This document shows positions 15,315-33,900 of a stretch of DNA of 64,000 bases, piece after piece. Within the stretch, counting starts at the first letter, position 1. The number at the start of each line of letters is the position of its first letter. The stretch comes from Flavobacteriales bacterium (lineage in GTDB: Bacteria > Bacteroidota > Bacteroidia > Flavobacteriales_F > PHOS-HE28): NCBI GenBank assembly GCA_016712025.1, contig JADJRW010000009.1, positions 16,066 through 80,065 of the forward strand. Reading direction: 5' to 3'. Both the position numbers and the translations under genes were made by a program. The notes below the pieces were generated by a model that did no database searches, was not told where the DNA came from, and saw nothing but the letters and a program-made list of their open reading frames with translations.

Positions 15315-16070
15315 TCACAACCGAGCCAGGCTGTCCATCAGCTCCTGCTTCTTGCGGCGGCTCACGGCGACGTTGGTGCCGTCGCTCATGATCACCTCGC
15401 CGCCTTCGCCGCGGATGTACTTCTTCACGTGCTTCACGTTGATGAGGTAGCTGTGGTGTACGCGCACGAACTGCTCGGGATCGAGGATATCCTCGAACTC
15501 CTTCAATGTGCGGCTGATCACCAGGCGCTTCTTGTCCTTCTGGTGGACCACCGTGTAGTTGCTGTCGCTCTCGCAGTACATCACCTCGTCCACATCCACC
15601 ATCTCCAAGCCGTCGGCCACGGGCAGTGCGATGCGGCGCTCGGCGGCAGCGGGCCGGGTCAGGTTCTTCAGCAGCGCCATGAACTGATCGGGGGTCTGCG
15701 GGGTGCGCATCTCCGCGCGTACCTTGTTGATGGCGCCCGCGAGTTCATCGGGGTCCACCGGCTTCAACAGATAGTCCAACGCGCTGAAGCGGATGGCCTT
15801 CACGGCGTAGCCTTCGTGGGCGGTGGTGAAGATGACGTGCGGGCGGTCCGGGCCGATGGCCTGCAATAGATCGAAGCCGGTCTGCTTGCCCATCTCGATA
15901 TCCAGGAAGAGGATCTTGGGCTTCACCTTGCTCAACAGTTCGATGCCCTCGGGCACGTTGTTGGCCATGCCCAACAGCGGCACGTCCGGATGCTTGCGTT
16001 CGAGGATGCCGCTGAGGGCATCGCGACAGTGTTGTTCGTCGTCAACGATCACGGCGGTGAGCTCGCTCAT
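15315..16070 (-). CDS. Two-component response regulator, receiver + LytTR DNA-binding domain
   Basis: Receiver motifs (VIVDDE...LFLDIEM...K) and a C-terminal LytTR domain (RVHHSYLINVKHVKKY, 'SDGTNVAVSRR'). Start set at MSELTAVIVDDE (internal to the ORF-track call). Confidence 0.88.
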   Translation of the reverse strand: MSELTAVIVDDEQHCRDALSGILERKHPDVPLLGMANNVPEGIELLSKVKPKILFLDIEMGKQTGFDLLQAIGPDRPHVIFTTAHEGYAVKAIRFSALDYLLKPVDPDELAGAINKVRAEMRTPQTPDQFMALLKNLTRPAAAERRIALPVADGLEMVDVDEVMYCESDSNYTVVHQKDKKRLVISRTLKEFEDILDPEQFVRVHHSYLINVKHVKKYIRGEGGEVIMSDGTNVAVSRRKKQELMDSLARL

Positions 16071-16171
16071 GGTGGGGTGGGTGGTAAACGAGGCGAAAAG
16101 ATAGGCGCCACGGCAAAGCAAAATGACAAAGGCCCCTCCCAGGGCCTCTGCCGTTCCTCCCAAACCTACCC

Positions 16172-16780
16172 TTAGTTCTTGGCTTCGGCCTCCTGCTCGG
16201 CGCGCTTCTGCTCGGTCCAGGCGGCCAGTTCCATCGTGGGATCCACGAAGGCGGCCACCTCTTTGCGCGCGCGCTTCACCGGGGCTTGGGCCAGTGCTTC
16301 CTCCACCGGGGCTTGCTTGCTCTCCAGGCGGGCGGTGTGCAGGTGCTCGTAGCCGAAATCATTGTCCTTGGTGTTGAAGGCGATCTTGCCCACCGGGCCA
16401 TCGTACTGTTGCTCGCCCTCGGCAGGTTGCGCCAGCAGGCTTACCTGGAAGTGGAAGAGGAAGTCCTTTTTCGCCTCTGCGTTCTTCGGAAGGCGGGCGT
16501 CGAACACCAGTTCCTTGGCGATGGTGCCGGGGAGCTCGAACCGCAGGCGGTACTCATGGCCCAAGGGCAGTTCCATTTGGAATTGGGCCAGGCCCTTATC
16601 CATGCGGTTGAAGGCGGCGCCGTCCTGGAGCACAGTGACCGACGCGCCTTCGAGCGGGTTGCTGCTGAGCACCTTGCCCTCGATGCGGAGCACATGGCTG
16701 GTCTCGTTGGCGGAAGCGGTGATCGCGATGGAAGCGATGGCGGCTTGGGCGGTGAGGCGGAGGAAGGTGAGGGCTTTCAT
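16172..16780 (-). CDS. Small secreted protein, CarboxypepD_reg-like (prealbumin-like) fold predicted; paralog 3 of a three-member family in this window
   Basis: Signal peptide MKALTFLRLTAQAAIASIAITASA. The core GKVLSSNPLEGASVTVLQDG...GHEYRLRFELPG resembles carboxypeptidase-regulatory-like domains. Same architecture as the ORFs at 26794..27303 and 28654..29163. Confidence 0.6.
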   Translation of the reverse strand: MKALTFLRLTAQAAIASIAITASANETSHVLRIEGKVLSSNPLEGASVTVLQDGAAFNRMDKGLAQFQMELPLGHEYRLRFELPGTIAKELVFDARLPKNAEAKKDFLFHFQVSLLAQPAEGEQQYDGPVGKIAFNTKDNDFGYEHLHTARLESKQAPVEEALAQAPVKRARKEVAAFVDPTMELAAWTEQKRAEQEAEAKN

Positions 16781-16821
16781 TTTGGTGGGAGATTCGGAGG
16801 GCGTTGTTCGTCTTTCGCGAC

Positions 16822-16924
16822 CCAAAACAACGTCGGGAGTGGGGGTAGGGGTGAGCGCGGGCAGCGGGGAGGGAGTAGGTGGCGGTGTATGGGGTCAGGG
16901 GTAGCAGGCAGGAGCAGGTGCAGG
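16822..16924 (-). promoter_or_regulatory. Putative LytTR-box promoter of the secreted-protein gene: direct-repeat box plus a Bacteroidota-type -7-like element
   Basis: In gene sense, CCGCCACCTACT (plus strand AGTAGGTGGCGG, ~16874-16885) with a weaker partner (AGCAGGTGCAGG ~16913-16924). TTGTTTTG (plus CAAAACAA ~16823-16830) lies 43 nt upstream of the ATG. Coordinates approximate. Confidence 0.45.
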
Positions 16925-17083
16925 AGGCGCCCAACGTGCAATGCGGGGCGAGTGGGTTGGTACGGCACGGAAGAGAACGATGTGATGTTTGGCCTCGGCT
17001 GGGGACCCAGTGAGGCTGTGTCTCCTGAAATGGAAGAACCCCACGATCCGGGGACCGCAGGGCTCTTTCAGAGAAGCGCGTTG

Positions 17084-17356
17084 TTATTCGGTGACGAAGT
17101 TGCCTTCTGGGGTGATCCAGATCCGGGTCATGTCCGCATCCGTGCGTATCGCGGGTTCCGTGGTAGTGGTGCCCGACGGTGGGTCGCTATCGGCTCCATC
17201 GGTGCTGGCGACAGGCGTGGTCGCGCTCAGTTCATTGTTCTCGGTCTCTTCCGTCGCGGGGGCGGTGCCTTGAGGTGCGACCAATGCATCCTTGGTGCAG
17301 GAAGCGGTGAGCAGCAGGAACATGTAGAGGGCGGCGAAGGTGGTGTAGGCTTTCAT
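17084..17356 (-). CDS. Small acidic Thr/Ser/Pro-rich lipoprotein (90 aa)
   Basis: Lipoprotein signal MKAYTTFAALYMFLLLTASC (lipobox LTAS|C). Low-complexity mature part. Sits between the TPR kinase and the secreted-protein gene on the same strand. Confidence 0.55.
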   Translation of the reverse strand: MKAYTTFAALYMFLLLTASCTKDALVAPQGTAPATEETENNELSATTPVASTDGADSDPPSGTTTTEPAIRTDADMTRIWITPEGNFVTE

Positions 17357-17397
17357 GGCAGTTGATTTTTTTGTGGTCATCGTTGTTGATGATGGGC

Positions 17398-17469
17398 CAA
17401 AGCAAATGCCGTGTACCGAAGGGACCATTCGCCGTCGAGCAAGTGGGGGTTGGAGGGAGCAGGTGGGGG
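17398..17469 (-). promoter_or_regulatory. Putative LytTR-box promoter of the lipoprotein gene
   Basis: Plus-strand AGCAAGTGGGGG (~17438-17449) and AGCAGGTGGGGG (~17458-17469), 20 bp start-to-start. TTGCTTTG in gene sense (plus CAAAGCAA ~17398-17405) lies 42 nt upstream of the ATG. Box-to-(-7) spacing is the same as at two paralog promoters. Confidence 0.5.
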
Positions 17470-17591
17470 AACTCGCGTTCTTGGGAGTATGCCCGGACTG
17501 GCCACAGGCTCAAGCTATCCGCGTTGAAGACGAGATCTTCGTTAGGTCTTATAGACTTGCATTGAAGCTAGCGGCTTGCAGCCAGCGCGTT

Positions 17592-19546
17592 CTAGTGCGC
17601 GTGCATCAATGGCATCTCCACTTCCACCCGCGTGCCTTGCGGAACATCTACGTAGCGGAAGCCTGCGGTGCCGCCGTGCTGTTTCTGAACGAGATCCAAA
17701 CGGGAACGTGTGATCGCGGTGCCGAGACTGGTTTTTTTCGTTGGCGTATCACCCGGTGGCTGTGCCGCCGGTTCCTTCTTGGCGTTGCGCCCAACACCAT
17801 TATCCTCTATGATCCATACCAGCTGCTTGCCGCGTGCTTCTACTTTCAAACTGATGTGCCCTTTGCCCTCCTTGCCCGCAATGCCATGCCAGATGGCGTT
17901 CTCCACGAAGGGTTGCACCACCAGCGGGGGCACCACCACCTCTTCCGGATCGAGCGCATCGTCCACCGTGATGGTGAAATCGAATTTCTCCTGCATGCGC
18001 TTGCGCTCCAGATCCATGTAGCCGCGCAGCGTTTCCAAGTCGTCCTTCAAGGGGACCTCGCTGTGGCGGCTGTTCTCCAGCACGCTGCGCATCACCCGGG
18101 CGAACTTGGTGAGGTAGCTGCTGGCGCTGTCCTGATCGTTCTTCTGCACATAGGCGTTGATGGAGTTGAGCGCGTTGAAGATGAAGTGCGGGTTCATCTG
18201 GCTGCGCAAGGCGCGTGTTTCTAATTGCGCGGCATCCTTCTCGAAACGCTCCCGCCTACGCCGTCTGTCGCTAATGAAGAAGAAGGTGCCACCACCCATC
18301 ACGAGGATGGCCCCGCCCATCAGCGCCAAAGCGTTGTTACGGTTACGATCCGCCCGTAAACGCTGGATCGTTCGGTCCTTCTCCAATTGAGCGACCTCAT
18401 TGGCATGGGCCAGGCTATCCGCGAGCTGTTGCTTGTCATATTCGGCACCTGCGGTGATGAGGACCACTTCCGCCTTGCCTTGGGTGGCCTCTAGGGAATC
18501 GCGGCCGATCATCAGCGTATCGAAGTAACTGAGCGCCTCCTTGTACCGCTTTGCCTTCCGCAAGGCCTCGACAAGTTCATCCAATACGCCAACGGCCACA
18601 TCCAGGTTGCTGATCTCCTGTGCGATCCGCAAGGCGTTCTTGTGATCAGCCACCGCGTTCTCCCAATCGTTCAGACGCCCATGGTATCGGCCCAGATCGG
18701 AGTAGTACCTGGATATCCGCTCCTTGTCGCCCAGCTTTTGGGCGAGGACGAACATGCGTTCAAGGCACTTGAACGCCTTGGCATTGTCGCCGATCTTCTG
18801 ATATAGTTCGGCCTTCTGCGACAGCACGCGCAACGTGCGGTAATCGCTGTGGGCCAAGGCCAGGAGGTCCTCGTTGATCGTCAAATGCCGCAACGCGAGC
18901 GTATCATTTCCCGCTATCTGATGCGCCGCAGCGATGTTCTCATGGGCGAAGGCCAGTCCCAGGGTGTCGTGGGTCGCCTCTGTACGACTGCGCGCTTGTT
19001 CATACCACCTCATCGCCTCCCCGGCGCGTCCGAATATCAGGTACGCATTGCCGATCCATGTGGTCGCGCGGTTCGCGTTCTCGTGGTGGCCATCCTTGGA
19101 GGCCGCGGCCAGGCTCTCTTTGAAGGCCATGACGCAGCGCGTGGAGTCTTTCAGGTTGAGATAGAGGTAGCCCAGTTCGAAGTACGCTTCCGACGCTATG
19201 CCGTCATCCCCGGCCTTAGTCGCATGTTTGATGCTCTGGTTCAGGTGAACGATCGCCTCCGGGTAGTTGCTCAGCGGAGAGCTGTATACATAGCCGATGT
19301 CCACTTCCATTTGCGCCATGCCCGCGACCCATCCAAGACGCTCCGCTAGGGCCAGCGCCTTCTGGAAATGGTCCAAGGCAGTGAACGGTTCGTTGTTCCA
19401 CAGTTCCCGGCCCAAGGACCCCAGCAGGTTGACCTTGTTCGTGTCCTCCCCGCGCATTGACCAGCGCCTGCTTCAGGCTGTCGATCTGCCCCTGGCAGAA
19501 AAGTACTGAAGAGGAGGAGGACCGAAGGCAACAGGGATCGCTTCAT
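17592..19546 (-). CDS. Sensor histidine kinase, periplasmic TPR repeats + single TM + LytS-type His_kinase + HATPase (one apparent frameshift near 19450)
   Basis: Signal peptide MKRSLLPSVLLLFSTFLPG in ORF 19346..19546, then a frame change into ORF 17592..19457. TPR-like repeats, TM ALALMGGAILVMGGGTFFFI, MNPHFIFNALNSINAY (PF06580-like) and a C-terminal ATPase (IEDNGVG). Confidence 0.8.
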
Positions 19547-19584
19547 TCAGGCGGCATTGGACCGACGGACGGGAATATAGATCG

Positions 19585-21819
19585 CTATCCCGCCCCGTCG
19601 ATAGGCAGGCTCAGTTCCACCCGCGTTCCTTGCGGCAGATCGATGTACTTGAAGCCTGCGGGTTTGCCCTTCTGTTTCTGGACCAGGTCCAGCCTTGCCT
19701 TGGTGATCGTGGTGGCAAGTGAGGTCTTCTTCTGTGTTGTCTCTTGGCTCGTGACCTTTGGTGCATGGCGGCCCACGCCGTCATCCTCGATGGCCATCAC
19801 CAGTTCACTCCCGCGCCTTTGTACGCTGAGGGTGATGTGCCCCTTCTCCTCCTTCCCCGCCATACCGTGCCAGATGGCGTTTTCCACGAACGGTTGTATG
19901 ACCAAGGGGGGTACATGTACCTCTTCCTGATCGATGGTGGGATCCACTAGAATGGTGTAGTCGAACTTCTCGCCGCTCCGTGCGCGCTCCAGGTGCAAGT
20001 AGTTGTCCAGCGCTTCCAGGTCGTCCTTCAGCGGCACCTCGCTTTGACGGCTGTTCTCCAGTACAAGTCGCATCAACCGGGCAAAGCGGGACAAGAAAGC
20101 TGCGGCCTTGTCAGGCTCGTTCTTCTGCACAAACGCGTTGATGGAATTCAGCGCGTTGAAGATGAAGTGGGGGTTCATCTGGCTGCGCAGCGCTTGTGTT
20201 TCCAGGTGTGCGGCTTCCTTCTCGAAGCGTTCTTTCCGCCGCTTGCGGTCCAACCAGAAGAAGACGCCACTGGCGATCAGGACCAGCGCCCCGACGATGA
20301 GCAGCAGTCGGCTTCGGGTCTTTTCCTGCGCCGCTTCCAACCGGGCCACTTCTGCGCCCAAACGTTCGCGCTCCACTGCTTGCGCGCTCTCTATGCTGTC
20401 CGCCAGCATCTGGGCTTGGAAATCCGTTTCGATCTGCCGCTTCATCAGCCCCATGCGGAACTGCTCGCGGCCTAGCGAGTCGGAGGTGGTTTGGTAGAGT
20501 TCGTGCATCCGCAGCGCGGCGCGCGTGTCGTTGCGTTGTTTGTACACCTCGTAGAGCAAAAGGCTGGCACGGTTCACCAGTGAGAGATCGTTGCGTGCCC
20601 TGCCCCGGTTTAAGGCCCGCTCGCCGTAGCGCAGTGCTTCCGCGAAAGCGCCCTGCGCGAAGGACAGTTCGCCGAGGTCCACGGTGGGGTCCACATCCTC
20701 GAGCCCTTCTTGTTCGGCGAGGGCGTCGCTGGCCTTCAGAAAGAGCAGCGCACTATCCGTCCTGGTCAACGCGATCCAACAGAGCCCGATATCGCGCAGC
20801 AGTTCGGCCCGGCGCAGCACTACCGCACCGCTCGTTCCTCCGGGCAGGGCAACACCCGGCATGCTGCCGCCCACCAGGGCCAGCCCTTGGCGATGGTGCG
20901 ACAAGGCGGTCGCGTACTCCTTTGTGCGCATACGGAACCGGCCCATGCGGTCGTGGAACCTGGCGATGTCCGCAGCGACACCGCGGTCCTCGGCACGCTT
21001 CAGCCCGTCGGTGATCAGTTGCAATACCTGCTTGTCCTGCGCGGTGATGTCGTAAGTGGTGATGAGCAGGTCGATCGCGCTCATGGCGCCACTGGCGTCG
21101 CCCACTTCTTCGAAGCCTTTGTAAGCGCTTTGCGCATGGTCGAAGGCAGCTTCCAGGCCGATCCGTGCGGCGTGACGCGCGAGGGCCATTTGGGTGTAGG
21201 CCTCATTGCGCCTGTCGCCCATGGCTTGGTCCATTTTCAGCAGGCGCTGGCAGGCGAGGATGGCTCCGCGATGGTCGCCGAAACGGGTGCGGAGTTGTTC
21301 TTCCTGCCACAGCATCTGGCGCATACCGGCGGAATCCTTCAGCGCCGCGAGGGCCTTCGATCCCGCTTCCATGGTGGCGATCGCGCTATCCTGCCGACCT
21401 TCCTTCCAATGTGATTCAGCCAGCCAGTAACGCACATCCGAGCTGCGCATCCCCATACCCGTCGGGGCGATGGCCAGCGCGGCACGATAGGAAGCGCGGG
21501 CGCGGGACCCAGCGTTCTCCGAACCATACAAGAACGCCTCGCGGATGTGCAGTTCCATCAGCAGGCTGTCCGCTACTCGTTGCTCTGGTCCCAAGCCTGC
21601 CTTCAGGGCCTCGACCTCGGCGATCATGGTGGCCACTGCTTTATGGGCCTGGCCTAGAGGAACCGAACCGTTCGAAAGTGTGCTTGCCCGGGCAAGCAGT
21701 GCTTTCAGGTCCGCGCTGGCGGCCGAAGCCGTGGCCGGAGCAACCCAGGTGATCAGGCAAGCCGCAGCCCAGAGCGCCGCGCCATGGCCACCGATCTTGC
21801 AACGCATCGTACCCCGCAT
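19585..21819 (-). CDS. Sensor histidine kinase, periplasmic TPR repeats + TM + LytS-type His_kinase + HATPase
   Basis: Signal peptide (MRCKIGGHGAALWAAACLITWVAPATASA), long TPR region, TM LLLIVGALVLIASGVFFWL, MNPHFIFNALNSINAF and an ATPase domain. Stop is 38 bp upstream of the next kinase. Confidence 0.82.
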   Translation of the reverse strand: MRGTMRCKIGGHGAALWAAACLITWVAPATASAASADLKALLARASTLSNGSVPLGQAHKAVATMIAEVEALKAGLGPEQRVADSLLMELHIREAFLYGSENAGSRARASYRAALAIAPTGMGMRSSDVRYWLAESHWKEGRQDSAIATMEAGSKALAALKDSAGMRQMLWQEEQLRTRFGDHRGAILACQRLLKMDQAMGDRRNEAYTQMALARHAARIGLEAAFDHAQSAYKGFEEVGDASGAMSAIDLLITTYDITAQDKQVLQLITDGLKRAEDRGVAADIARFHDRMGRFRMRTKEYATALSHHRQGLALVGGSMPGVALPGGTSGAVVLRRAELLRDIGLCWIALTRTDSALLFLKASDALAEQEGLEDVDPTVDLGELSFAQGAFAEALRYGERALNRGRARNDLSLVNRASLLLYEVYKQRNDTRAALRMHELYQTTSDSLGREQFRMGLMKRQIETDFQAQMLADSIESAQAVERERLGAEVARLEAAQEKTRSRLLLIVGALVLIASGVFFWLDRKRRKERFEKEAAHLETQALRSQMNPHFIFNALNSINAFVQKNEPDKAAAFLSRFARLMRLVLENSRQSEVPLKDDLEALDNYLHLERARSGEKFDYTILVDPTIDQEEVHVPPLVIQPFVENAIWHGMAGKEEKGHITLSVQRRGSELVMAIEDDGVGRHAPKVTSQETTQKKTSLATTITKARLDLVQKQKGKPAGFKYIDLPQGTRVELSLPIDGAG

Positions 21820-22002
21820 GCGGCGAAGGTCGGGCGGAACCACCCCTGGTCCGTGCTCGGCACGGCTAACGACTTTGCGGGATGGATCGACCAACTACCC
21901 GGCCGGATCGTTTAGCTTGGCGTCCCTCTTACCAAGGAGTTTCGAGCTGGAACGGCGGTGACCGGGAGATCTCGGGATGGAACAATGATCGATCGGACCC
22001 TC

Positions 22003-23119
22003 ATGCGGACCATGCATACCGATAGCGTACTTCACCGCCACGGCGCTTGCGCGTGGCCTGGCGCGATGCTGTTTCTCGCGCTCCTTTCCGGACCCGCCGC
22101 TCGGGCACAACAGACCCTGGTCCGTGCGGACGGATCACAACTGAGCGGTCAAGTCCAGCGGATATCCGCCGATCATGTGGATTTCTCCGTGGCGGGTGGC
22201 CGCTCGGCCGGTACCACCAGCGTGCCTTGTGGCGAGGTGATTTGCATCGTTGACGGATCGCTTCGCGTGCATACCCGCCCCTGCGGCGGCAATGCGGGCG
22301 ATCTTGCGGGGAACGAGCCGACCTGCAACGCCTTGCTGCGGAATGACAACCAAGTGCTCAAAGGCACCATCACCCGGTGGGCCGATGATCGCTTCACCAT
22401 CCGCACAGGGCGTGGCGATGTGAACGTACCGCGCAGCGATGTGGCAGGAGTGCTTTCGCCGGGGCATGTGGAGTTCTCGCTCTCACCCGATCGGCTCAAG
22501 GCGCTCATGGCGAACGGCTCCGTGCTGAACGCCCTGAACGATGCGAGCAAATGCCCGCCCGTTGTCGAACCGCGCACCGTGCAGTATTCCGAGAAGTGGG
22601 TCGCGCCCAAGTTCGAACGCGCGGCCAGCGAGACCGCTTCAGAGGACCTCGACTTCGTGCGCTTCAAGGATGTGGCCCTCGAGAAGACCAAGCGCCTCAG
22701 CGGCTACATCGAGCAGATCACCAACAAGGAGCTCAGCAGCATTGTGAAGGACAAGGCGGTGGACCAAGCCATCGGGCTCTTCGAGCGGGCGGACAACATC
22801 GTGCATGTCTCCAACGCCACCACCGGCATTCAGAAGGAACACCTCATCACGCGCTATCTCGGCAGTCACCTGCGCATGCTGAACTACGACCTGGTGAAGA
22901 TCGAATGGGCCGACATCCAGTACGCCAGTGATTTTGAACTGCAGATGGACGGCAGCTATACCGCGGTGGTCTCGATCCAACAGCGCTTCACCGGCCGTAA
23001 CGAACAAGAACGTGCAGATCAAGCTGCGCACCTACCAGAAGGTGCAGGAGGGCCGCACCACGGTGCTCTGGGATGTGTTCCTCGGCGATATCGGCGTGGT
23101 TTCCACCAAGGCGGAATGA
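22003..23119 (+). CDS. Secreted hypothetical protein (~370 aa), one apparent frameshift near 23005
   Basis: Signal peptide ...WPGAMLFLALLSGPAARAQQ. The C-terminus in ORF 22928..23119 ends with a stop overlapping the next ATG (ATGA). The ORF-track fusion with the next gene results from the frameshift. Confidence 0.55.
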
Positions 23120-23889
23120 TGCGCACCCTCGCGATATTCTTCGCGCTCGCCTGTGCCGCGGTGGTGGTCGCGCAGACACCCGACCAGCAGTACGAACTGT
23201 GCGTGAAGCAGTTCGATGAGTTCCGCGATCGATTCAATGGCGTTTATAAAGGGACCGTGCCTCCCGGCGTGGATCCTCCGTCGCGGGAAGTGTTGCTGCA
23301 CAGCGTGCTCAGCGCCGAGGTCGCGGAGGTCGATCAGGATGCGTTCGTGCAGGCTATGCTTACCGCCGAACCGTCGGTCGCGCTGGAACTGGATGGCGTA
23401 CCCTGGCTCGCCCGCGTTACCTGCCGCACATGGACCAATGGCGATACCACGGATATCGCTTTTTGGCTGGTGCGCGAAAAGGTGGGCGCGGCCCGGAAGT
23501 GGTCGATCCTGAGCAGCGATCTCGCCCGCATCAATACGAACACGCAACTCTACATCGACTCCAAGAGCCATGAGTACGGCTTCATCGATCTGCTCCGCGT
23601 GGACGATGGTGGGCATCCCGGGGTCTATCCTTACATCGGCCCGCCGGGGATCGCCGGGTTGTTCGAATTGCAGGACGCGTTGCTGCGGTCGGAACTGCAA
23701 GTGGTCGGCATCAAGCGGATCGAAATGCATCTTCTGCAACTTCCAGGATGGTTCCTCCTGGTGGAATACCGCCCCACCCCGGTCCGTGCCAAAGACTTCA
23801 CACCCTCCGGCTGGAACATCACCAAACTCGTGCGCATGCAGGATGGCGATAAAACCGCCTACCTCTGGCACCAAGTGCTTGGTTTGTGA
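23116..23889 (+). CDS. Secreted hypothetical protein (257 aa)
   Basis: Signal peptide MMRTLAIFFALACAAVVVAQ. In frame and translationally coupled with the neighbours. Confidence 0.6.
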   Translation: MMRTLAIFFALACAAVVVAQTPDQQYELCVKQFDEFRDRFNGVYKGTVPPGVDPPSREVLLHSVLSAEVAEVDQDAFVQAMLTAEPSVALELDGVPWLARVTCRTWTNGDTTDIAFWLVREKVGAARKWSILSSDLARINTNTQLYIDSKSHEYGFIDLLRVDDGGHPGVYPYIGPPGIAGLFELQDALLRSELQVVGIKRIEMHLLQLPGWFLLVEYRPTPVRAKDFTPSGWNITKLVRMQDGDKTAYLWHQVLGL

Positions 23890-23893
23890 TCCC

Positions 23894-26718
23894 ATGTCCC
23901 TCCGTCGCGCGCTACCGATCCTCTTCGTTATGGCCACAACAGTGGTCAGCGCATTGCCGGGGGATAGCCTCACCGTACGCGACAAGGGCTTGATCAACGC
24001 GTTGGCGGAAAGCACCTTCAAGCGGTATATCCTGCTGCTCGACAACATCGCCGGCATGGAAGCCAGCGATGATGAAAGCACCCTCCTCGTGCATGAGCTC
24101 ATCACCGGCGCATGCACCGGTCGCGACCGCATGTTCCTGCGGCCCGATGTGCGCATCGAGGACAATGTGGATCCCACGAACGGATCACAGACCGCGGGCA
24201 AGGACCGCCCTGTTGAAGAATACGCCAACGATCTGCTCCTCTACTTCCAGAGCAACGATCCACTGCGCACCGCGCTGGAGGCGAAGCTGCTGAAGATGCG
24301 CGAGCCGGATGTTTCAGAGACCGCCTTCACTCAGATCCTCTACGAAATGCGCTTCCTCGGGCGGCACAGCCAGTCCACCGAGCCCTACACCATCCATCGC
24401 CGTGTGCTGGAGTTCGTGGCCGAACCACGGGCGGGGGGCGGCTGGGACGTGGTGATCGCTTCGGACAATTTCTTCGACCCCTCGGCCACCTTCGCCGAGA
24501 CGCTCCTGGAGCAGGATATGGATTCCCTCGCTCGCGCCGGGCGAAAGGACATCAAGCAGCTCACGGCGGCAGCGGCCGAGTACCGCAGCGCGTTCGAGCA
24601 GGAGCAGCACAGGGAAGAGCAACAACGCGCCGAACGGCGCCAGGCCTTCGAGACCGCCATGACGGCCGCGCGCGACCAGTTGACCAACGGCGAATTCGAA
24701 GGAGCGACGAACCTCCTGGAGCAAGCGCGTTCCATCGACCCCCTGGCTGTGGAACCGCTCGTATTGTTGAACGAGACCCGCCGCGCCATGGAGCGTAAGC
24801 GCCTGAAGGATGAGGCGGACTTCGCCTCGGCATGCGAACAAGGCGCGGCTCTCAATGGCATGCGGGCCTACGAACGTGCGAAGTTGTCCTATGAGCGCGC
24901 ACTGCTGATCAAGCCCGGGAGTACCGAGGTGAAAGCACTGGTCGACGGCCTGAGCGCGATCCTGGTGAAGAAGAAGGACAGGGAGAAGTTCCTCGCGCTA
25001 GGCGATCAGGACAAGGCCCTGTCACAGGTGCAAGCATCGCTGAAGGAACCCGGCCGGGGCGGCGATGTGGAGTTGATGGTGCTCGAAGCGCGTGTGCTGG
25101 TCGCCAAAGAGCTCAGTGGCCAGGCCGTGCCGCTGCTCAATACCGTGCTGCGACGCGAACCCCGCTATCTCGATGCCCTGGCACTGCGGGCGTCCATACT
25201 GGAAAAGAGCAACGTGGCCGATCAACAGGCCGCCGTGGCGGACTACTACACGCTGATGCTCCATGATCCCTGGCAGCCCGCCTACCATCATCGCCTCGCA
25301 CGCCTGTTGTGCAACGTCCAGGGGAAATGTGATGAGGCCATGGAAGTTTTGGAGCAGGCGAAGACCAAGGCGCCCAATGATCCCGAGACACGCTACCAGA
25401 TGGGTGTATTGCTGGCGTATCGCGCGCGCCATGCGGACGCGCTCGTGCGGTTCGATGAGGCGCTCGCCATGGACAGTGCCTCTGCGCCTTGCCACCTCGC
25501 CCGCGGCCTCAGCCTCTTGGAAATGGACCGTGTTGCCGAAGGGGAAGGGGCTGTTCTCACCGCCCAGCGCACAGGGCTCTCTCCCCAGGAACGCACCGGG
25601 ATGACCCTGCTCGCGCAACAGCACCTGTCCAAAGCGAAGGAACTGCAAGGCCTCAACGCGTTCGCGGAGGCCGACCATCAGTTCCTGCTGGCATGCGTCC
25701 TGGATCCCGAGCAGAGCGAGAACCGTTTGCTCAAGGCGCGCAACCTGATGCGCTTCGAGCAGTACACCGCCGCCATCACCGATCTGGACCGCTACATCGA
25801 GAAGGCCGTTACACCCTTCGTCGGTTTCCTGGAGCGCGGCAATTGCCACTTGGGTGCGGGCAACTACGATCTCGCGCTCAAGGATTTCGAGACCATCCTG
25901 AGCAACAATGTGGAGAGCATGCGCCAACCCGCCATGCTCGGCAAGGCCCGCGCCTATTTCGCCAAGGGCTGATCCGGCGAACGCGGAATCACTGCTGAAG
26001 GGCGTGCTGAAAACCGAGAAACGCAACGGCGAGGTCCTCGCCATGATGACCAAGATCTGTCTTGCCGCCGGGCGGTTGATGAGCGACGGGGTTCGGGGAA
26101 CAGGCGGCCGATGCCGACAAAGCGAACCATGCGTACGTCTTCGATCTCGGTCTGGCCTACCAGGCACTGCTGAACGACAATGCCGCTGTGCGCTGTTTCG
26201 AGAAAGCGATCACCCTGGGTGCCGATCGCGCCGATGCCAAGAAGCAGGTGGGCCGTTCGGCCATGCTCGTGAACAATTTGAAAGAGGCCCTTCCCGCCTT
26301 CGATGAATCCTTGCGCATCCGCGACGATGTGGAATGTGGCCGCTGGCGCGCGGACTGCCTGCGCGAGACCGGCAAGTACCAAGAGGCGCTCGAACAACTG
26401 AACCTGGTATTCGACCGCAACGAGGCGATGAAGCGGGATGTGAGCATCCATGTCGACCTCGCGATGCTCTATGTGCTCAACGATCGGCTTCCCCTGGCCA
26501 AGGACTATATCGCCGAGGCCGAGGCGTTGGATCCTTTGTACCGTCGCACCCAGATCACGAAAGGCGCCTACCTCTATCGCGCAGGGCAGCAGGAAGACGC
26601 GGTAAGGTTGCTCCGCAGTTTGGTGAACAGCGGCGAAGTGAAGGAGGATGACCTGCGCAAAATGCCCGTGTTGAAAGAAGTGCTCGCTACGAAGGCGTAC
26701 CGCGAGTCGGGTCGCTGA
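23894..26718 (+). CDS. Large TPR-repeat protein with signal peptide (~940 aa), two apparent frameshifts near 25965 and 26095
   Basis: The ORF-track 5' extension to 23570 overlaps the previous gene in another frame. MSLRRALPILFVMATTVVSA is a signal peptide. Many TPR-like repeats. The sequence continues across frames 23894..25972, then ~25966..26095 (DPANAESLLKGVLKTEKRNGEVLAMM...), then ..26718 (ADADKANHAYVFDLGLAYQALL...). Confidence 0.65.
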
Positions 26719-26743
26719 TCGCGGACGCGGAAAAAAAGCGAAA

Positions 26744-26772
26744 GGCCGATCGCGGTGATCGGCCCATTTGCC
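26744..26772. terminator. Putative bidirectional hairpin terminator between convergent genes
   Basis: GGCCGATC-GCGGT-GATCGGCC perfect 8-bp stem, preceded by AAAAAAAGCGAAA and followed by CATTTG. Lies between the TPR gene (+) and the small secreted-protein gene (-). Confidence 0.4.
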
Positions 26773-26793
26773 TTGGAGTGATCGGCTGCTGTT

Positions 26794-27303
26794 TCACATC
26801 GGCACCGCGCAGCTCATGTTCCCGGAGGCGATCAACAGATCGGGATCCAGGTCGATGATGCGCGTCTCACCCGTGGTGGCATCGAACATCACCTGGCCCA
26901 TCGGTTTGTCATAGCAGAGTTGCAGGTCGGTGGGCTGGGGTTCCAGCGTGAGGTCGAGTTCCACGCGGGCGGTGCGCTCGATCACGCCTTCCTTGCTTGG
27001 TGCATTGTGCGTGTCGATCAGCATCGTCTTGCTGATGTAGCCGGGACGGTCGAGCGTGAGCGTCACTTGATCGTTCACGGGGATGAAGAACTCGAACTTG
27101 CCATTGGGGCGGAGCGCGACTTCCATTGTCTCGGTGCCATCGGTCACTTGCATGTGGACGTTCTCCATATCGGCGGAGGCGACCAGCAGGCGGCCTTCGA
27201 AGGCAACGAAGGCCTGGGCATTGGCAGCGACTGTGATCGTAAGACCGGCGACGATCATTGCGGCTTGCAACAGAGTGCGCTTGATGTGGGGCTGGAGGTT
27301 CAT
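26794..27303 (-). CDS. Small secreted protein, CarboxypepD_reg-like; paralog 1
   Basis: MNLQPHIKRTLLQAAMIVAGLTITVAANAQA signal peptide. ~45% identical to the ORF at 28654..29163 by eye (AFEGR..., HMxVTDGTETM, DTHNAPS, RTxxV). Start at the internal Met of the ORF-track call. Confidence 0.65.
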   Translation of the reverse strand: MNLQPHIKRTLLQAAMIVAGLTITVAANAQAFVAFEGRLLVASADMENVHMQVTDGTETMEVALRPNGKFEFFIPVNDQVTLTLDRPGYISKTMLIDTHNAPSKEGVIERTARVELDLTLEPQPTDLQLCYDKPMGQVMFDATTGETRIIDLDPDLLIASGNMSCAVPM

Positions 27304-27357
27304 GGTAGTGGGGGGTGTTTGGGTTTGGTTGAGGTTGGTTGTTTCTGTTCGACGGGT

Positions 27358-27430
27358 CAAAACTGCCATGACCAGCCCCGCTGGCATAGCGGCGCCGAGC
27401 AAGTGGCGGGGGTGAGGAAGCAAGTGGCGG
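27358..27430 (-). promoter_or_regulatory. Putative LytTR-box promoter: two perfect 12-bp direct repeats AGCAAGTGGCGG spaced 21 bp, plus a -7-like element
   Basis: Plus-strand AGCAAGTGGCGG at ~27398-27409 and again at ~27419-27430. CAGTTTTG in gene sense (plus CAAAACTG 27358-27365) lies 55 nt upstream of the ATG. Confidence 0.55.
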
Positions 27431-27502
27431 AGGAGGGATAGCCTATCTTGTGGAGGCGCCGACTACCTTATCCCAACAGGTCATCCAGGAAGCCGAAAGA
27501 AC

Positions 27503-28456
27503 ATGCTCAGGGCACGCTTTCTATTCCTCACAAGTCTTGTCCTCGCCACAATGGCGACGGCGCAGAACCTTGTGCCCAATCCGAGCTTCGAGGATACGGT
27601 GGATTGTGAAACGCCGACCCAATGCCAACTGCTCAAGGCTACGCACTGGCGCAACCCGAACACCGCCACCCCCGATGTGTGGGATGCCGACCTGGTGCGT
27701 GAGTGTGGTTTTCCTATGGATTCCACGGAGATCTTCGGATATCAGGCACCTTTCCATGGATCACGATGCAGTGGGTTATATTTTTGGTTCGGACCGGGAA
27801 GCTCAGATACGAGGGAGTACCTCATGATACAGTTGACATCTTCCCTCACCTCGGGGTCTGCCTATCGGGTGGGTCTGAATTATTCCCGTCGTGATGACTT
27901 TAAATGGGCCACGGACCACATTGGTGTGTGGTTGGGAACGGATAGCGTGTTCGAGAACACACCGAACTGGCTGAGCCTCACCCCCCAGGTGCGCTTGTAC
28001 GACCCGAACAGCCCCTACCTCAGCGAGGCGGACCTTTGGGTGGAATTGGCCGATACCTTATTCGCCCAAGGCGGAGAGCATTGGATGATCATCGGGAATT
28101 TCGATGTGGCCGATTCGGTCAATGGCATCCAAGTGATACCGGTGGGCTGGTCCTATGCCTATTACTACATCGACCAAGTCAGCCTGGTGCACTTGGGGGA
28201 GGTGCAGGCATTGCCGGAACCATTGTTGCAGGTTCAGTTGATCGCAGGATCTCTTCAGATACAGCTTCCTTTCGGCTTTCAAGCGCAAGAGATCACTGTA
28301 CGAGATGTTTCTGGAAGATCGGTTCTCACTCAACCGATCCGGTCTGCATCGAGCCCAATACAAGTGGACCTGGAAGATCTCTCTGCGGGCATTTACGTGC
28401 TTACGGCGGTTGGAGGAGCATGCGGAACATCGGTTCGGTTCGTCAAGGAGGAATAG
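27503..28456 (+). CDS. T9SS C-terminal-domain secreted protein (317 aa); gene body noticeably lower in G+C than its surroundings
   Basis: Signal peptide MLRARFLFLTSLVLATMATAQNLVPNPSFE. C-terminal ~80 aa has the T9SS type-A sorting-domain pattern (...GIYVLTAVGGACGTSVRFVKEE). The 27700-28450 stretch is visibly AT-richer (~50% GC by eye). Confidence 0.65.
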   Translation: MLRARFLFLTSLVLATMATAQNLVPNPSFEDTVDCETPTQCQLLKATHWRNPNTATPDVWDADLVRECGFPMDSTEIFGYQAPFHGSRCSGLYFWFGPGSSDTREYLMIQLTSSLTSGSAYRVGLNYSRRDDFKWATDHIGVWLGTDSVFENTPNWLSLTPQVRLYDPNSPYLSEADLWVELADTLFAQGGEHWMIIGNFDVADSVNGIQVIPVGWSYAYYYIDQVSLVHLGEVQALPEPLLQVQLIAGSLQIQLPFGFQAQEITVRDVSGRSVLTQPIRSASSPIQVDLEDLSAGIYVLTAVGGACGTSVRFVKEE

Positions 28457-28653
28457 TGCCTCGAGCGAGAACTCGAAGCCCGAACTCCGGCGCGAGCTTC
28501 ATTGTGCAACAGAAAGGGGTCGCGGAAATGCGGCGGAAACCACCCCTCATTCCCCTCCTTATGTGCTCGGGCGAGCGATCACCCTCAGGAGGCGAGGTCA
28601 ATGCAGAAAGCCGCCCCGGTCCCCCGAAGCGGCTCTTCCGATCGACGTTCTCT

Positions 28654-29163
28654 TTACTGCATCGCGCTCGCTTGCGTGTCGACGGCGATCTTCTCCTGCG
28701 GCATGTTCAATATCACCGTGGTGAGGCGGCCATCGCAGTCCACGAAAGCCACCGCGCCCACTGGCCCGGCATAGGCGAGTAGCTGGCCTTCCGGCTGGCG
28801 CTCCAGTTCCAGATCGAAACCTACTTTCTCGGTGCGGGCGAAGACGCCTTCGGTGCTGGGCGCGTTGTGCGTATCGAGCAACACCTCCTTGGTGAGGTAG
28901 CCGGGACTGGCGATGTGTAACGTTACCTTTTCGTCCACGGGCACGAAGAACTTGTAGTTGCCGGTGCGGCCCAGCTCTACGTCCATGGTTTCGGTGCCAT
29001 CGGTCACCGTCATGTGTACCGGGTGCAGGGCGTTTTCCTGGAGGATCACGCGGCCCTCGAAGGCGACGTAGGCCTGGGCGTTGGCCAGTGTGCAGAGGGA
29101 GATCCCGGCGACGATCAAGCCGGCTTGGAAGAGGGTGCGGGTGATGTGGGGCTGGAGGTTCAT
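28654..29163 (-). CDS. Small secreted protein, CarboxypepD_reg-like; paralog 2
   Basis: MNLQPHITRTLFQAGLIVAGISLCTLANAQA signal peptide. Paralog of 26794..27303. Located directly downstream of the decayed TPR kinase on the same strand. Confidence 0.65.
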   Translation of the reverse strand: MNLQPHITRTLFQAGLIVAGISLCTLANAQAYVAFEGRVILQENALHPVHMTVTDGTETMDVELGRTGNYKFFVPVDEKVTLHIASPGYLTKEVLLDTHNAPSTEGVFARTEKVGFDLELERQPEGQLLAYAGPVGAVAFVDCDGRLTTVILNMPQEKIAVDTQASAMQ

Positions 29164-29205
29164 GGCAATGGGGTTTGTTAGGTGCGTTGTTGTCGTTGGC
29201 TGGGA

Positions 29206-29278
29206 CAAAACTCATCGTACCCGAAGCCGGCGCGTAGCCTGGATGAGCAAGTGGCGGGTGGGGGGAAGTAATTGGTGG
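29206..29278 (-). promoter_or_regulatory. Putative LytTR-box promoter of paralog 2
   Basis: Plus-strand AGCAAGTGGCGG (~29246-29257) and degenerate AGTAATTGGTGG (~29267-29278), 21 bp apart. GAGTTTTG in gene sense (plus CAAAACTC 29206-29213) lies 43 nt upstream of the ATG. Box-to-(-7) spacing identical to 27358..27430. Confidence 0.5.
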
Positions 29279-29403: not shown

Positions 29404-31608
29404 CTAATTCGCGTACATCAGCGGCATATCCACCTCCACCCGGGTGCCCTGCGCGAGATCCACGTATTTGAAGCCGGCCTTTCCACCGTGCTGCTTCTGC
29501 ACCAGGTCCAAACGTGCGCGTGTGATCGTGGTTCCCAACGAGGTCTTCTTCACCCCGGTCACTGGAGTTCCTTCCGGCAAGGGTGCCTTCTTCGCATGTC
29601 GCCCTGCACCATTGTCCTCGATGATCCACACGAGTTGCTTCTCCCGCGCTTCCACTTTCAAGCGGATTTGGCCTTGCCCTTCCTTCCCCGCCATGCCATG
29701 CCAGATGGCATTCTCTACGAAAGGCTGCACTACGAGCGGAGGTACCATCACCTCTTCCGGATCGAGCCCCGGATCTACCTCCACGGTGAAATCGAACTTC
29801 TTGTCCATGCGCATGCGCTCCAGGTCCATGTAGCCGCGAAGGGCTTCCAGATCTTCGGAGAGGGACACTTCCGCATGGCGGCTGTTCTCCAGCACGCTGC
29901 GCATCACGCGGGCGAATTTCCCCAAGTAACTGCTGGCGCTGTCCTGGTCGTTGCGTTGCACGAACGCGTTGATCGAGTTGAGCGCATTGAATATGAAGTG
30001 CGGGTTCATCTGGCTTCGCAATGCCTGCGTCTCAAATGTGGCCGCTTCCTTCTCAAAGCGTTCCTGCCGCCGCTTCCTGTCGGATACGAACCAGGCCCCC
30101 GCCCCGCTGAGCAAGAGCAGCGCCCCGCCACCGGTGGCCCAGGCGCGGTTGCTGTTCTGGTCCGCACGCATCGATTCGATCGTACGTTCTCGCTTTCCAG
30201 CACCATGCGCTCGCCGGCATAGCGCAGGCTGTCCGCCATTTGCTGTTTGCCGAAGGTGTAGAGCAGGTCGCGTTGGGTGAGCTCTCGCGTGCTCTTTCTC
30301 GGTGGCCATGCTGTCGCGTGTCACCACATGGAATTCCTCGAGATAGCGCAATGCGGTCAGACCATCGCCCCGCGCCTTGTGGGCCAGATAGAGGCATTCG
30401 CAGTTTTCACCGCGTTCGGTCAACGCGGCCGCCTCGCCAGCGCGAACCGCGCCGTGCAATGCGCGATCGCTTCACGCGGCAGGACCTCGGTCCAGAGCCA
30501 CGCGGCCCAAGAGGGCCAGGGTCTCGGCCTCCGTGGGCGCATCCTTGAGTTCACTCCCCAGGGTGAGCGCCTCGTCGCAATGAGCCATCGGCATCGGCGG
30601 TCGGCCCGTCTCGCGATATGCACGGGCCGGCAGTTCACAGTGTGCGGCACATCAGGTCTTTCGCATCGAACTCGCGTTCCAAACCGATGCGCTCCAACCA
30701 AGTGGATCGCGCTATCTGGCTGGTCCATCTCCAATAGCGCGCTGCCGATGCTCCGGCCAGAGGTCATCATGCCTTGACGATAGCCGACCTTGGTGTAGAA
30801 ACCGTACGCACGTCGCAACAAGGGCCGGGGAGTCATCCGTCTTCACCGAGCGCGTCCTTAAGGTCCGCTCACGGTGGTGAGCGAGGTCGCGATGCCGCGG
30901 TCGTTCTTCAGATCTTCCATGATGGCGAGGCACTTGTAGGCGAAGTCGATCGCGGGGCCGATCTGGCCCATGCGCTCGTCACGTTGGCGCGATTCCCCAT
31001 AGCTCGCGGCCACCATTGCGGCCATGCCGAGGGTCGCCGCGAGCTCTGCCGCCTTGGCGTAGTTACGAGCGCGCTGTCGTTCTGCCCCTGGATCCTGGTG
31101 CAACGGCCGATGCCTGCCGAACCCTCTTCATCGTTCGCCAGGTGGTGCATCGCGGATGCGCTGGTCCAAGGCTCCATCGCCTCTTCCATAAGGCCAGGGT
31201 TCTTGTGGCCAACTGCCCATGCTGCTGGATGATGCCCACGCTCCCCGGCATCTGGCGGCCAGCCTCCAGTGCCGAAAGAATCCCTGGCGGTGGTACAGCG
31301 TGTGCAGGGCGGTAGCGGTGGAGCGCTTCATCAATGTTCCGGGCCTCGCATCGGCTATAGCGCCAAAGTGCGATGCGCCAGGGTGTCGTTCTGCTCACGG
31401 CCTGGCGCAACAGGTCATCGCACAGCACGCGCGCCGAATCGGAGTTCTCGTAGCGTGTTTCGTCGACGATCTCGTGCAGGAGCAGGAGCCGCTCGTGGTC
31501 GTCCTGTCCCGGCGTGCGGTAGACCTGCCAGAGCGAATCGAGGTACGGGCTATCGGAGGTCTGGGTGGCAGACAGGAAGGAGAAGGACAAGAAGCAGGAG
31601 GCTAGCAC
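29404..31608 (-). pseudogene. Third TPR-sensor LytS-type histidine kinase, broken into at least 5 reading frames (decayed gene or locally very poor sequence)
   Basis: C-terminal kinase half is intact in ORF 29404..30459 (TM, MNPHFIFNALNSINAF, ATPase). The N-terminal signal peptide and TPR region are scattered over ORFs 30420..30836, 30858..31103 and 31063..31608 (MLASCFLSFSFLSATQ...) in different frames. Confidence 0.55.
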
Positions 31609-31670: not shown

Positions 31671-32369
31671 CTACCCCACCTGCAACTTGAACCCTACCCC
31701 ATGCACGTTCACGATCTGCACGCGCGGGTCGTTCTTCAGGTACTTGCGCAGGCGGCTGATGAAGACATCGAGGCTGCGGCCCAGGAAGTAGGTGTCATCA
31801 CCCCAGACCATGTTGAGCACCAGCTCCCGCGGCAGCACCTGGTCCTGGTGCAGGCAGAGCAGCCGGAGCACATCAGCTTCTTTTCGCGTGAGCTTCCGCT
31901 CTTCGGTGGGATGCTTCAGCACGAGGTCGCGCTGATCGAAGGTGTAGTCGCCCAGTTCGAACACATCGCGTTTGCGCTTGTCATCACCCTTGCCCTGCGT
32001 GCGGCGTAGGATGGCATCGATGCGCAGGGCGAGCTCTTCGTGACTGAAGGGTTTCGTGAGGTAGTCATCACCCCCGGCCTTGAACCCGGTGATGCGGTCC
32101 TCGGTCTGGCTCTTGGCGGTGAGGAAGACGATGGGCACTTGCTCGTTCACCGAACGGATGTCCTCCGCCAGGCTGAAGCCGTCCTTGTGCGGCATCATCA
32201 CGTCCAGCACGCAGAGGTCGTAGCTGTGCTCGTTGAAGTACTTCAACCCTTCCTTGCCATCGCGGCACAGGTGTACCGCATAGCCTTTGCGCTTTAGCGC
32301 GTCCTGGATCACGAAGCCCAGGTTCTGGTCGTCCTCCACCAGCAGGATGTTCGCTTTGGTATCGCTCAT
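31671..32369 (-). CDS. OmpR-family response regulator (receiver + winged-helix)
   Basis: Receiver motifs (ILLVEDD, DLCVLDVMMP, K) and a C-terminal trans_reg_C domain (READVLRLLCLHQDQVLPRELVLNMVWGDDTYF...VHGVGFKL). Confidence 0.88.
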   Translation of the reverse strand: MSDTKANILLVEDDQNLGFVIQDALKRKGYAVHLCRDGKEGLKYFNEHSYDLCVLDVMMPHKDGFSLAEDIRSVNEQVPIVFLTAKSQTEDRITGFKAGGDDYLTKPFSHEELALRIDAILRRTQGKGDDKRKRDVFELGDYTFDQRDLVLKHPTEERKLTRKEADVLRLLCLHQDQVLPRELVLNMVWGDDTYFLGRSLDVFISRLRKYLKNDPRVQIVNVHGVGFKLQVG

Positions 32370-32414
32370 GCTTAGTGCGCCGAAGCCCGGCGTAGGCGTG
32401 ATCGTGGTGTTCGT

Positions 32415-33734: not shown

Positions 33735-33746
33735 GGTCCAGGTAAT

Positions 33747-33900
33747 AGAGGCTATCTCAAAAATACCCTTTGGGCTCCGCAAGGGTCTTCCGCGCCCATG
33801 CTTCGTTGTGAGAGCCCGGGGCGCCCAGCCTGCTCGGTTCTCACGCCTCGCCGAAACAGATCCCTCTTGCGCGCTTCCAAAGCATTTTGAGATAGCCTCT
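33747..33900. repeat. 16-bp perfect inverted repeat (AGAGGCTATCTCAAAA / TTTTGAGATAGCCTCT) with a 122-bp spacer in the divergent intergenic region
   Basis: Seen directly at ~33747-33762 and ~33885-33900. The left arm overlaps a perfect Bacteroidota -7 consensus (TATTTTTG in the sense of the kinase gene), 24 nt before its ATG. The right arm is ~66 nt upstream of the glycosyltransferase start. Confidence 0.5.

Follow-up and report, generated by a model that had tools for sequence, protein, structure and literature searches.

Four genes in a 64-kb window of contig JADJRW010000009.1 from an uncultured Flavobacteriales bacterium (the whole stretch of DNA analysed, 64,000 nucleotides) are preceded by the same paired direct-repeat box; they code for three small secreted proteins, here named sp1, sp2 and sp3, and for a small probable lipoprotein. 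Judged from its conservation between genomes, the paired box is a real, selected cis-element that marks out a small regulon of secreted proteins in a clade of uncultured Flavobacteriales. It is probably the operator of the adjacent REC-LytTR response regulator, binding by this protein being suggested by synteny and by the co-conservation of the box with the REC-LytTR gene. An initial annotation of the window had proposed a dedicated cis-element defining a regulon tied to the adjacent kinase and LytTR regulator, and this proposal agrees with the comparative conservation of the box, with boxed paralogs that are served in trans and with a recurring gene module.

A search with the motif C[CG]CCAC[CT]T[AG]CT (the 11-mer CSCCACYTRCT) gave 6 matches in the 64 kb, compared with a mean of 0.37 and a maximum of 3 in dinucleotide shuffles, none of which (0/100) reached 6. 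The six matches were all on the minus strand, that is in gene sense, and all within the four upstream regions, at the positions given in the initial annotation. As had also been described, the 12-mer was perfect in both copies of the sp2 promoter and in the proximal copy of the sp3 promoter, which has a degenerate partner; the proximal and distal copies at the lipoprotein gene showed one and two mismatches, respectively, and the copy at sp1 showed two (Table 1). From start to start, the repeats were 21 bp apart at sp2 and sp3 and 20 bp apart at the lipoprotein site. Read in gene sense, these three promoters exhibited a common layout, with a distal repeat CCAMYTRCT-YCC, a spacer of 8-9 nt, the proximal repeat CCGCCACTTGCTC, 34 nt and then the hexamer G(T/C)TTTG, the distal repeat being degenerate and the proximal one near-invariant. 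In the lipoprotein orthologs, the proximal repeat was CCGCCACTTGCTC or CCACCACTTGCTC. The 34 nt were counted between the 12-mer and the GTTTTG or GCTTTG hexamer at the three window sites; the earlier value of 32-33 bp was right in that the distance is fixed, and the count differs because the ends were defined differently.

The conserved core CCACTTGCT (9 nt) lies within CCGCCAnTTGCT(C), and adjacent 9-nt cores are 12 nt apart. LytTR sites consist of two direct or inverted repeats of 9-11 nt with a spacer of 11-13 nt (PMC4847170), a layout that this arrangement matches, so that the earlier suggestion that direct repeats about two helical turns apart fit LytTR binding was upheld. Three further features agreed with an operator of the LytTR type: two copies were present at 3 of the 4 window promoters and at no fewer than 20 promoters elsewhere (at least 20), the period of 21 bp (20 bp at the lipoprotein site) was within about 20-22 bp, and at 3 of the 4 window sites the pair occupied a fixed register just upstream of the predicted core promoter.

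The fourth site, upstream of sp1, was altered by an 11-bp deletion relative to the orthologs of JADJCS01 and JAGNSU01, seen when window positions 16829-16873 were compared with positions 9640-9700 of locus L001 and 3560-3620 of locus L013. The deletion took out CCACTTGCTCG, the proximal and best-conserved repeat, and the remnant of the box is now 45 nt from GTTTTG (16823-16828). This site had been read as one good copy with a weak partner at 16874; the surviving copy is the distal one and the proximal one has been lost. The sp1 promoter may thus be weakened or inactive in this genome, to judge from its sequence.

Outside the four upstream regions, near-matches at 35276 and 60563, unpaired and inside coding regions, and a match at 45356, unpaired and within a long called open reading frame (ORF), were set aside as chance. 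A single copy of CCGCCATTTGCT at 30233-30244 on the plus strand, the same as the distal box of locus L035, lies unpaired and antisense inside the coding region of the kinase HK3 and is probably also due to chance.

The hexamer downstream of the box belongs to a -7-like octamer with the consensus cAGtTTTG. The -7 box of Bacteroidota sigma-A is TAnnTTTG at about -12 to -5 (PMC9723704), and the octamer matches its A and TTTG, not its first T. No -33 element was recognisable at the box promoters, and a sigma-70 consensus scan gave nothing there, as expected for Bacteroidota. Over 17 promoters, the information content was 1.28 bits per position in the distal box, 1.81 in the proximal box and 1.45 in the -7 octamer; outside these blocks it was 0.29 in the flank and about 0.5 in the spacers.

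Close homologs of sp2 were rare and came from metagenome-assembled genomes (MAGs) named 'Flavobacteriales bacterium'. The initial annotation had named conservation of the box in orthologous promoters as a check, and the box was kept both in two related MAGs (GCA_016703105.1 and GCA_016704195.1), where the spacers have diverged, and in the distant loci L033 to L036. At L033, where the targets are 33% identical to sp2, both boxes are CCGCCACTTACT-N9-CCGCCACTTGCTC followed after 34 nt by GATTTG. The corresponding elements, again with 34 nt, are CCGCCACTTACG-N9-CCGCCACTTGCTC and GTTTTG at L034, CCGCCATTTGCT-N9-CCGCCAGTTGCGC and GTTTAG at L035, and CCGCCAGTTGAT-N9-CCGCCACTTGCTC and GATTTG at L036, where the box precedes the gene of a 693-aa protein with a type IX secretion system (T9SS) tail, and a TPR-kinase/LytTR pair is encoded divergently from this gene. 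Even with targets only about 30% identical, the genomes have retained the box together with its 21-bp period and the 34 nt that separate it from the -7 box. Orthologs of the lipoprotein were found behind the same box at L001, L013, L066 and L118. The sp2 ortholog of GCA_016704195.1 (L002, 9640-10290) has ACG in place of a start codon, several frame breaks and a decayed proximal repeat; gene and operator may be degenerating together, or these may be assembly errors.

GTDB was scanned, one genome per species, with the exact degenerate pattern of the pair, which gave 29 pair matches in 27 stretches. Eleven were in two Flavobacteriales MAGs (6 + 5) and all 11 lay 67-86 nt upstream of small secreted-protein genes or of the lipoprotein gene; the other matches were in unrelated phyla, one per stretch except for a tandem pair in a Microbacterium contig. 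Five Latescibacterota chromosomes (L018, L020, L027, L028 and L032) had one pair match each, probably in a coding sequence that they have in common. A box of its own was present before each of two tandem 159-aa paralogs that lie among housekeeping genes (purN-like, MarC, RNase H, BCCP, SOD, PfkB and SSB) with no regulator gene near them, which argues for an action of the element in trans.

When metagenomes were scanned for the pair, 85 matches were obtained. Since the -7 element was not part of the search pattern, it provides an independent check: TTTG or TTCG was present exactly 35 nt after the 13-mer in 40 of the 85 matches, compared with a mean of 0.7 at other offsets. About 46 of the sites were promoter-like and 44 of these 46 had the 9-nt gap that gives the 21-bp period. 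A readable ORF followed 38 of the promoter-like sites; it encoded a member of the sp family in 22 cases, the lipoprotein in 2 and a secreted basic protein of 71-81 aa in 4, the rest including a secreted protein of >1000 aa, a receiver-only protein and an NRDE-like protein. At L079 (6150-6180), a pair match in which the gap is shorter and TTTG is missing from its usual place nevertheless precedes a secreted protein (MKTKLRLL...IRFFGQPV...); a LytTR regulator that is more distant (E 4.9e-33) is encoded on the same contig, and L079 may represent the system in diverged form, in a relative of lower GC content.

The arrangement of a TPR-kinase gene, one or more boxed small genes and a REC-LytTR gene was seen again at L033, L044, L065, L087/L081, L092 and L109. 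When the window is compared with L033, identity is 88% for the regulator, whose LytTR domain is nearly identical, and 33% for the targets; the kinase core is well conserved and the TPR region only weakly similar (roughly 20% identical by eye). With decreasing identity of the regulator, the box becomes weaker or different: it is intact at 75% (L036), reduced to single CCGCCAGYTGCTC boxes at 63-64% (L037) and was not seen at 59% (L038). The best NCBIfam match of the window regulator was BtsR, below the cut-off. Pfam searches found PF06580 in the three window kinases (HK1, HK2 and HK3) at E values of 1e-23 to 3e-24 and also confirmed TPR and HATPase_c, and with His_kinase (PF06580) plus HATPase_c kinases and a REC plus LytTR regulator the proteins have the composition of a LytS/LytTR two-component system. 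The kinase core is preceded by a single transmembrane (TM) segment with the TPR part on its N-terminal side, and the sensor is not of the polytopic LytS/5TM kind. HK2, like the L064 and L033 kinases, has a signal peptide; together with the single TM segment, this predicts a periplasmic location for the TPR-like domain of HK2.

These data suggest the following mechanism. The TPR-sensor kinases HK1, HK2 and HK3, of the LytS/His_kinase type, would phosphorylate the regulator, their TPR domain being held in the periplasm by a signal peptide and one TM segment where the kinase N-terminus is intact. Two regulator molecules would then bind on the same face of the DNA at the direct repeats CCGCCAnTTGCT, 21 bp apart; with the -7 box at -12 to -5, the centres of the repeats would fall near -50 and -71. 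Bound in this way, the regulator would switch on transcription from a sigma-A promoter with the -7 box cAGtTTTG and without a recognisable -33 element. Each target would be a short unit made of box, promoter, one small gene and usually a hairpin at its end, and the output would be a fast-evolving Sec-exported transthyretin-like family, basic RK(Q/E)VxxFVDPT proteins and the lipoprotein. We infer activation rather than repression. The products may be signals, may modulate the TPR sensors by feedback, or may be plain cargo of the regulon.

Several points weigh against the regulator as binder of the box. No box was found before the regulator or kinase genes in the window, where autoregulation is thus not evident; autoregulation is typical of many LytTR systems. 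Other LytTR regulators are probably encoded in these genomes. The 17-promoter and metagenome sets take in orthologs from closely related populations, by which independent events are overcounted, and the transcription start, in an uncultured organism, is placed tentatively from the -7-like box. In addition, an OmpR-type gene repeatedly lies upstream of one of the box loci (window 31671-32369, L002, L003, L068 and L093).

This OmpR-type regulator of the HK3/sp3 locus, or an unlinked regulator, could be the factor that binds the box as a real operator, an explanation that we consider unlikely. OmpR/PhoB regulators also bind direct repeats, and box-driven genes have an OmpR-type gene directly upstream in L003, L068 and L093 and in their vicinity in the window and in L002, but the repeats of this family are known to have normally a period of about 10-11 bp and not the 21 bp observed here. 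Moreover, no OmpR-type gene was found in the 8-10 kb flanks of L033 and L036 nor in the pieces of L087, L064, L065 and L109 examined, whereas the orthologous LytTR regulator is present at all six of these loci, and the conservation of the box tracks the very high conservation of the LytTR protein.

It is a good deal less probable that the element is not an activator site but the promoter of an alternative sigma factor of the extracytoplasmic function (ECF) type or a UP-like element. The distance to the downstream conserved element is indeed fixed, no -33 element is evident and the leader just after TTTG is conserved (ACCCGTCGAAC / CATCGTCAAAC); against this, the element is built from one 12-mer present twice with a period of 21 bp, the 34 nt that separate the proximal copy from the -7-like box exceed what a -35/-10 pair would allow, A and TTTG of the sigma-A -7 box are found in the downstream element, and no sigma/anti-sigma genes recur beside the loci.

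That the boxes resemble each other as a leftover of gene duplication, promoters having been copied with the paralogs and having no regulatory meaning, is very improbable and, on the pattern of conservation, appears already largely refuted. Three of the four window genes are paralogous, and the promoters of the sp2-type and 159-aa paralogs also share leader sequence. The paralogs are, however, 20-50% identical, a divergence at which neutral DNA should be randomised, and only the boxes and the -7 element are conserved; the same box also precedes non-homologous genes (for the lipoprotein, the FVDPT proteins, the 693-aa protein with the T9SS tail and the protein of >1000 aa) and persists across genomes whose targets are 30% identical. 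An action of the repeats in RNA, as a 5' leader or attenuator, has nothing beyond their position upstream of ORFs in its favour and is the least credible explanation of all, since an Rfam search of positions 14000-32000 gave no family match, the repeat is direct and not inverted, and the element stands upstream of a well-conserved -7-like box at a fixed distance.

The sp paralogs, 20-50% identical at the protein level, have a predicted transthyretin-like beta-sandwich fold. Pfam PF13620 and PF13715 gave no match at E <= 0.01, and no hit at gathering score, for sp1, sp2 and sp3, the relatives of the family scoring about 16 bits where the CarboxypepD_reg cut-off is 32, and no model of Pfam or NCBIfam reached its threshold for the products. 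The earlier description of three paralogous CarboxypepD_reg-like secreted proteins therefore stands for paralogy, export and similarity at the level of the fold, and does not extend to Pfam membership. Unlike the Pfam CarboxypepD_reg/transthyretin-like families (PF13620 and PF13715), the sp family has an extra C-terminal segment and an unusually conserved N-region of the signal peptide. This N-region, MNLQPHIKRTLL (27268-27303 and 29128-29163 in the window), ranks with the best-conserved parts of the family, whose identity is about 30% elsewhere; such conservation is unusual for a signal peptide, and the 693-aa target of L036 begins similarly (MMKLPIRIQRHIL). A profile search recovered 982 representative clusters at E <= 1e-3, ranging from stand-alone proteins of about 165 aa to multi-repeat giants. 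The 693-aa (L036) and 609-aa (L037) box-associated proteins, considered as members of the small family, were not homologous to it.

The second box-controlled family comprises secreted Lys/Arg-rich proteins of 71-81 aa with an invariant FVDPT in a conserved RK(Q/E)V-x-x-FVDPT motif, and the C-terminal tail of sp1 (RKEVAAFVDPTMELA) is homologous to these proteins. Members were located at the sp1 C-terminus (16172-16330), at L064 (5213-5440 and 6302-6532) and at L067, L068 and L093. At L064, each box drives a gene for an FVDPT protein and then a transthyretin-like ORF, upstream of the kinase and regulator genes; as the two kinds of gene are separate there, sp1 looks like a fusion of both.

The box-driven transthyretin-like and FVDPT proteins might even be the ligands of the periplasmic TPR sensors, which would make the system a protein-based circuit of autoinduction or kin recognition in Bacteroidota, a possibility that we regard as rather doubtful. 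Sensor-ligand pairs would then diversify fast around an almost frozen LytTR regulator and operator, with a logic like that of Gram-positive pheromone systems built from different parts. Two circumstantial indications for autoinduction are that the TPR sensors and the products occur in one compartment and that each of them diverges fast.

The window contains two minus-strand gene clusters that share one logic, with one or more kinases, box-driven small genes and a regulator nearby (Table 1). The order of transcription in cluster 1 is HK2, HK1, the boxed lipoprotein gene with a hairpin, sp1 with its box remnant and a hairpin, and the REC-LytTR regulator; in cluster 2 it is a HisKA kinase and an OmpR-type regulator (33782..31671), HK3, boxed sp3, a plus-strand gene, and boxed sp2 with a hairpin. 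The hairpins after the lipoprotein gene, sp1 and sp2 carry T-rich tails, and because of them the targets look like separate short transcription units. The LytTR regulator had been placed in the same operon as two of the box genes; this conflicts with the terminator-like hairpins after the lipoprotein gene and sp1, and the regulator gene probably does not share an operon with these genes. The third TPR-kinase module reported beside a paralog was found in so far as HK3, the ortholog of the kinase in the L033 module, adjoins sp3; its TPR part (30460-31608) is broken into fragments. The divergent gene that shares its intergenic region with sp2 might be co-regulated from the sp2 box site (intergenic 27431-27502).

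Table 1. Features of the paired-box regulon in the 64-kb window (positions of the window).
Feature	Positions	Strand	Remarks
Distal repeat, sp2 promoter (CCGCCACTTGCT)	27419..27430	-	conserved in JADJCS01 and JAGNSU01 orthologous promoters
Proximal repeat, sp2 promoter (CCGCCACTTGCT, then C)	27398..27409	-	21 bp after distal, 34 nt before GTTTTG
Degenerate distal repeat, sp3 promoter (CCACCAATTACT)	29267..29278	-	orthologs have CCCCCACCTACT
Proximal repeat, sp3 promoter, perfect	29246..29257	-	34 nt before GTTTTG at 29206-29211
Distal repeat, lipoprotein promoter (CCCCCACCTGCT)	17458..17469	-	
Proximal repeat, lipoprotein promoter (CCCCCACTTGCT)	17438..17449	-	34 nt before GCTTTG at 17398-17403
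Surviving distal repeat, sp1 promoter (CCGCCACCTACT)	16874..16885	-	proximal repeat deleted
-7-like octamer cAGTTTTG, sp2 promoter	27358..27365	-	
-7-like octamer gAGTTTTG, sp3 promoter	29206..29213	-	
REC + LytTR response regulator, proposed box binder	15315..16070	-	Pfam LytTR 8.9e-22, Response_reg 6.1e-18
HK1	17592..19457	-	TPR repeats, one TM segment, His_kinase (PF06580), HATPase_c; ORF without N-terminal signal peptide
HK2	19585..21894	-	signal peptide, TPR-like sensor, TM segment at residues 530-548, His_kinase, HATPase_c
HK3	29404..31608	-	kinase core intact at 29404-30459; N-terminal TPR part split across frames at 30420-31608
sp1, 202-aa secreted protein	16172..16780	-	transthyretin-like domain and C-terminal RKEVAAFVDPT module
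sp2, 169-aa Sec-exported protein	26794..27303	-	transthyretin-like beta-sandwich
sp3, 169-aa paralog	28654..29163	-	50% identical to sp2
Small probable lipoprotein, 90 aa (MKAYTTFAALYMFLLLTASC...)	17084..17356	-	hairpin after gene at 17037-17056
Terminator-like hairpin, 12 pairs	16125..16152	-	between sp1 and regulator gene
Terminator-like hairpin after sp2	26743..26765	-	
Divergent gene, weak T9SS C-terminal sorting domain	27503..28456	+	common intergenic region with sp2

Some other observations concern the surroundings of the two clusters. Just downstream of the regulator gene, positions 14000-15010 are dominated by long G and C homopolymer runs (14001-16000 has 73% GC) and their ORFs translate to Pro/Arg/Gly-rich nonsense; this suggests an artefact of assembly or sequencing, or else an insert of low complexity. 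A PMT_2 glycosyltransferase, a HisKA kinase and an OmpR-type regulator form a conserved upstream block (window 31671-36500) that is also present at L002 (198-4089), L003 (680-4382), L068 and L093. The PMT_2-like glycosyltransferase gene of the window (34372-36500) is split across frames, as is the TPR half of HK3, and L002 is fragmented similarly; the frame splits in HK3 and in the PMT_2-like gene are either indel errors in long-read MAGs or pseudogenes.

LytTR regulators with PF06580-type kinases are very common in Bacteroidota, and no LytTR operator or regulon was found described for Bacteroidota or Flavobacteria in the searchable literature. The present analysis defines a precise candidate operator, CCGCCAnTTGCT-N9-CCGCCACTTGCTC at 34 nt upstream of a -7 box, with a compact regulon, and a conserved module of three parts, namely TPR-sensor kinase, small secreted proteins and LytTR regulator. 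An almost invariant regulator and operator with fast-evolving sensors and products is the pattern expected for a ligand-receptor or feedback pair, which makes the system a good candidate for finding what periplasmic TPR sensors detect. A tight activator-dependent promoter of this kind could also be used as a tool in Flavobacteriia.

Among known systems, the pheromone regulons of Gram-positive bacteria, which the initial annotation had seen as similar, share with the present one the LytTR regulator and exported products encoded beside kinase and regulator genes, and their boxes (AgrA, ComE, PlnC/D, BlpR, VirR) are likewise imperfect direct repeats with a period of about 21 bp beside a promoter; in both, the sensor and products evolve fast and the regulator is conserved. 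The resemblance thus covers operator and regulator and fails for the Sec-exported products, the dedicated exporter, which was not seen, and the periplasmic TPR sensors. The products carry Sec signal peptides (e.g. ...ANAQA) and have 169-202 aa, or 71-81 aa in the FVDPT family, and they are either a folded beta-sandwich of about 140 aa (about 15 kDa) or polypeptides of about 50 residues, unlike pheromones; the kinase, moreover, is not a polytopic HPK10 sensor. The gene neighbourhoods that were examined showed no double-glycine leader, AgrD-type precursor, AgrB-like gene or C39 ABC exporter. Because neither a double-glycine or AgrD-type precursor nor a dedicated exporter was seen and the sensor is not polytopic, the system is not a member of the pheromone class.

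CpxP (CpxAR), ZraP (ZraSR) and Spy are small periplasmic proteins that are encoded beside their system, are its main induced target and feed back on the sensor. The synteny observed here, with products and TPR sensors in one compartment, would fit such a feedback logic by analogy; unlike CpxP, Spy and ZraP, the products have a predicted beta-sandwich in place of the helical fold and there are many paralogs per genome. The FimS sensor of Porphyromonas gingivalis comes from the same phylum and has TPR repeats in its sensor domain, and the TPR region of HK1 matched the FimS model with an E value of 2.3e-11 and 42.7 bits, far below the cut-off of 600 bits; the kinase core here is of the PF06580 type and paired with a LytTR regulator, unlike FimS, and the targets are unrelated.

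The system is also like E. coli YpdA/YpdB, with its yhjX promoter, and BtsS/BtsR, which pair a His_kinase (PF06580) plus HATPase_c kinase with a REC plus LytTR regulator. Regulators of the YpdB/BtsR type have an operator of two direct repeats, at a distance of about two helical turns from each other and just upstream of the core promoter, and they control a very small regulon (PMC4847170). The window system differs from YpdAB and BtsSR in its sensor, a periplasmic TPR region with a single TM segment in place of a polytopic LytS-type domain, in its targets, small secreted proteins and not a transporter, in its promoter, of the Bacteroidota sigma-A -7 type, and in the sequence of the repeat, CCGCCAnTTGCT in the window lineage being unrelated to GGCATTTCAT in those systems.

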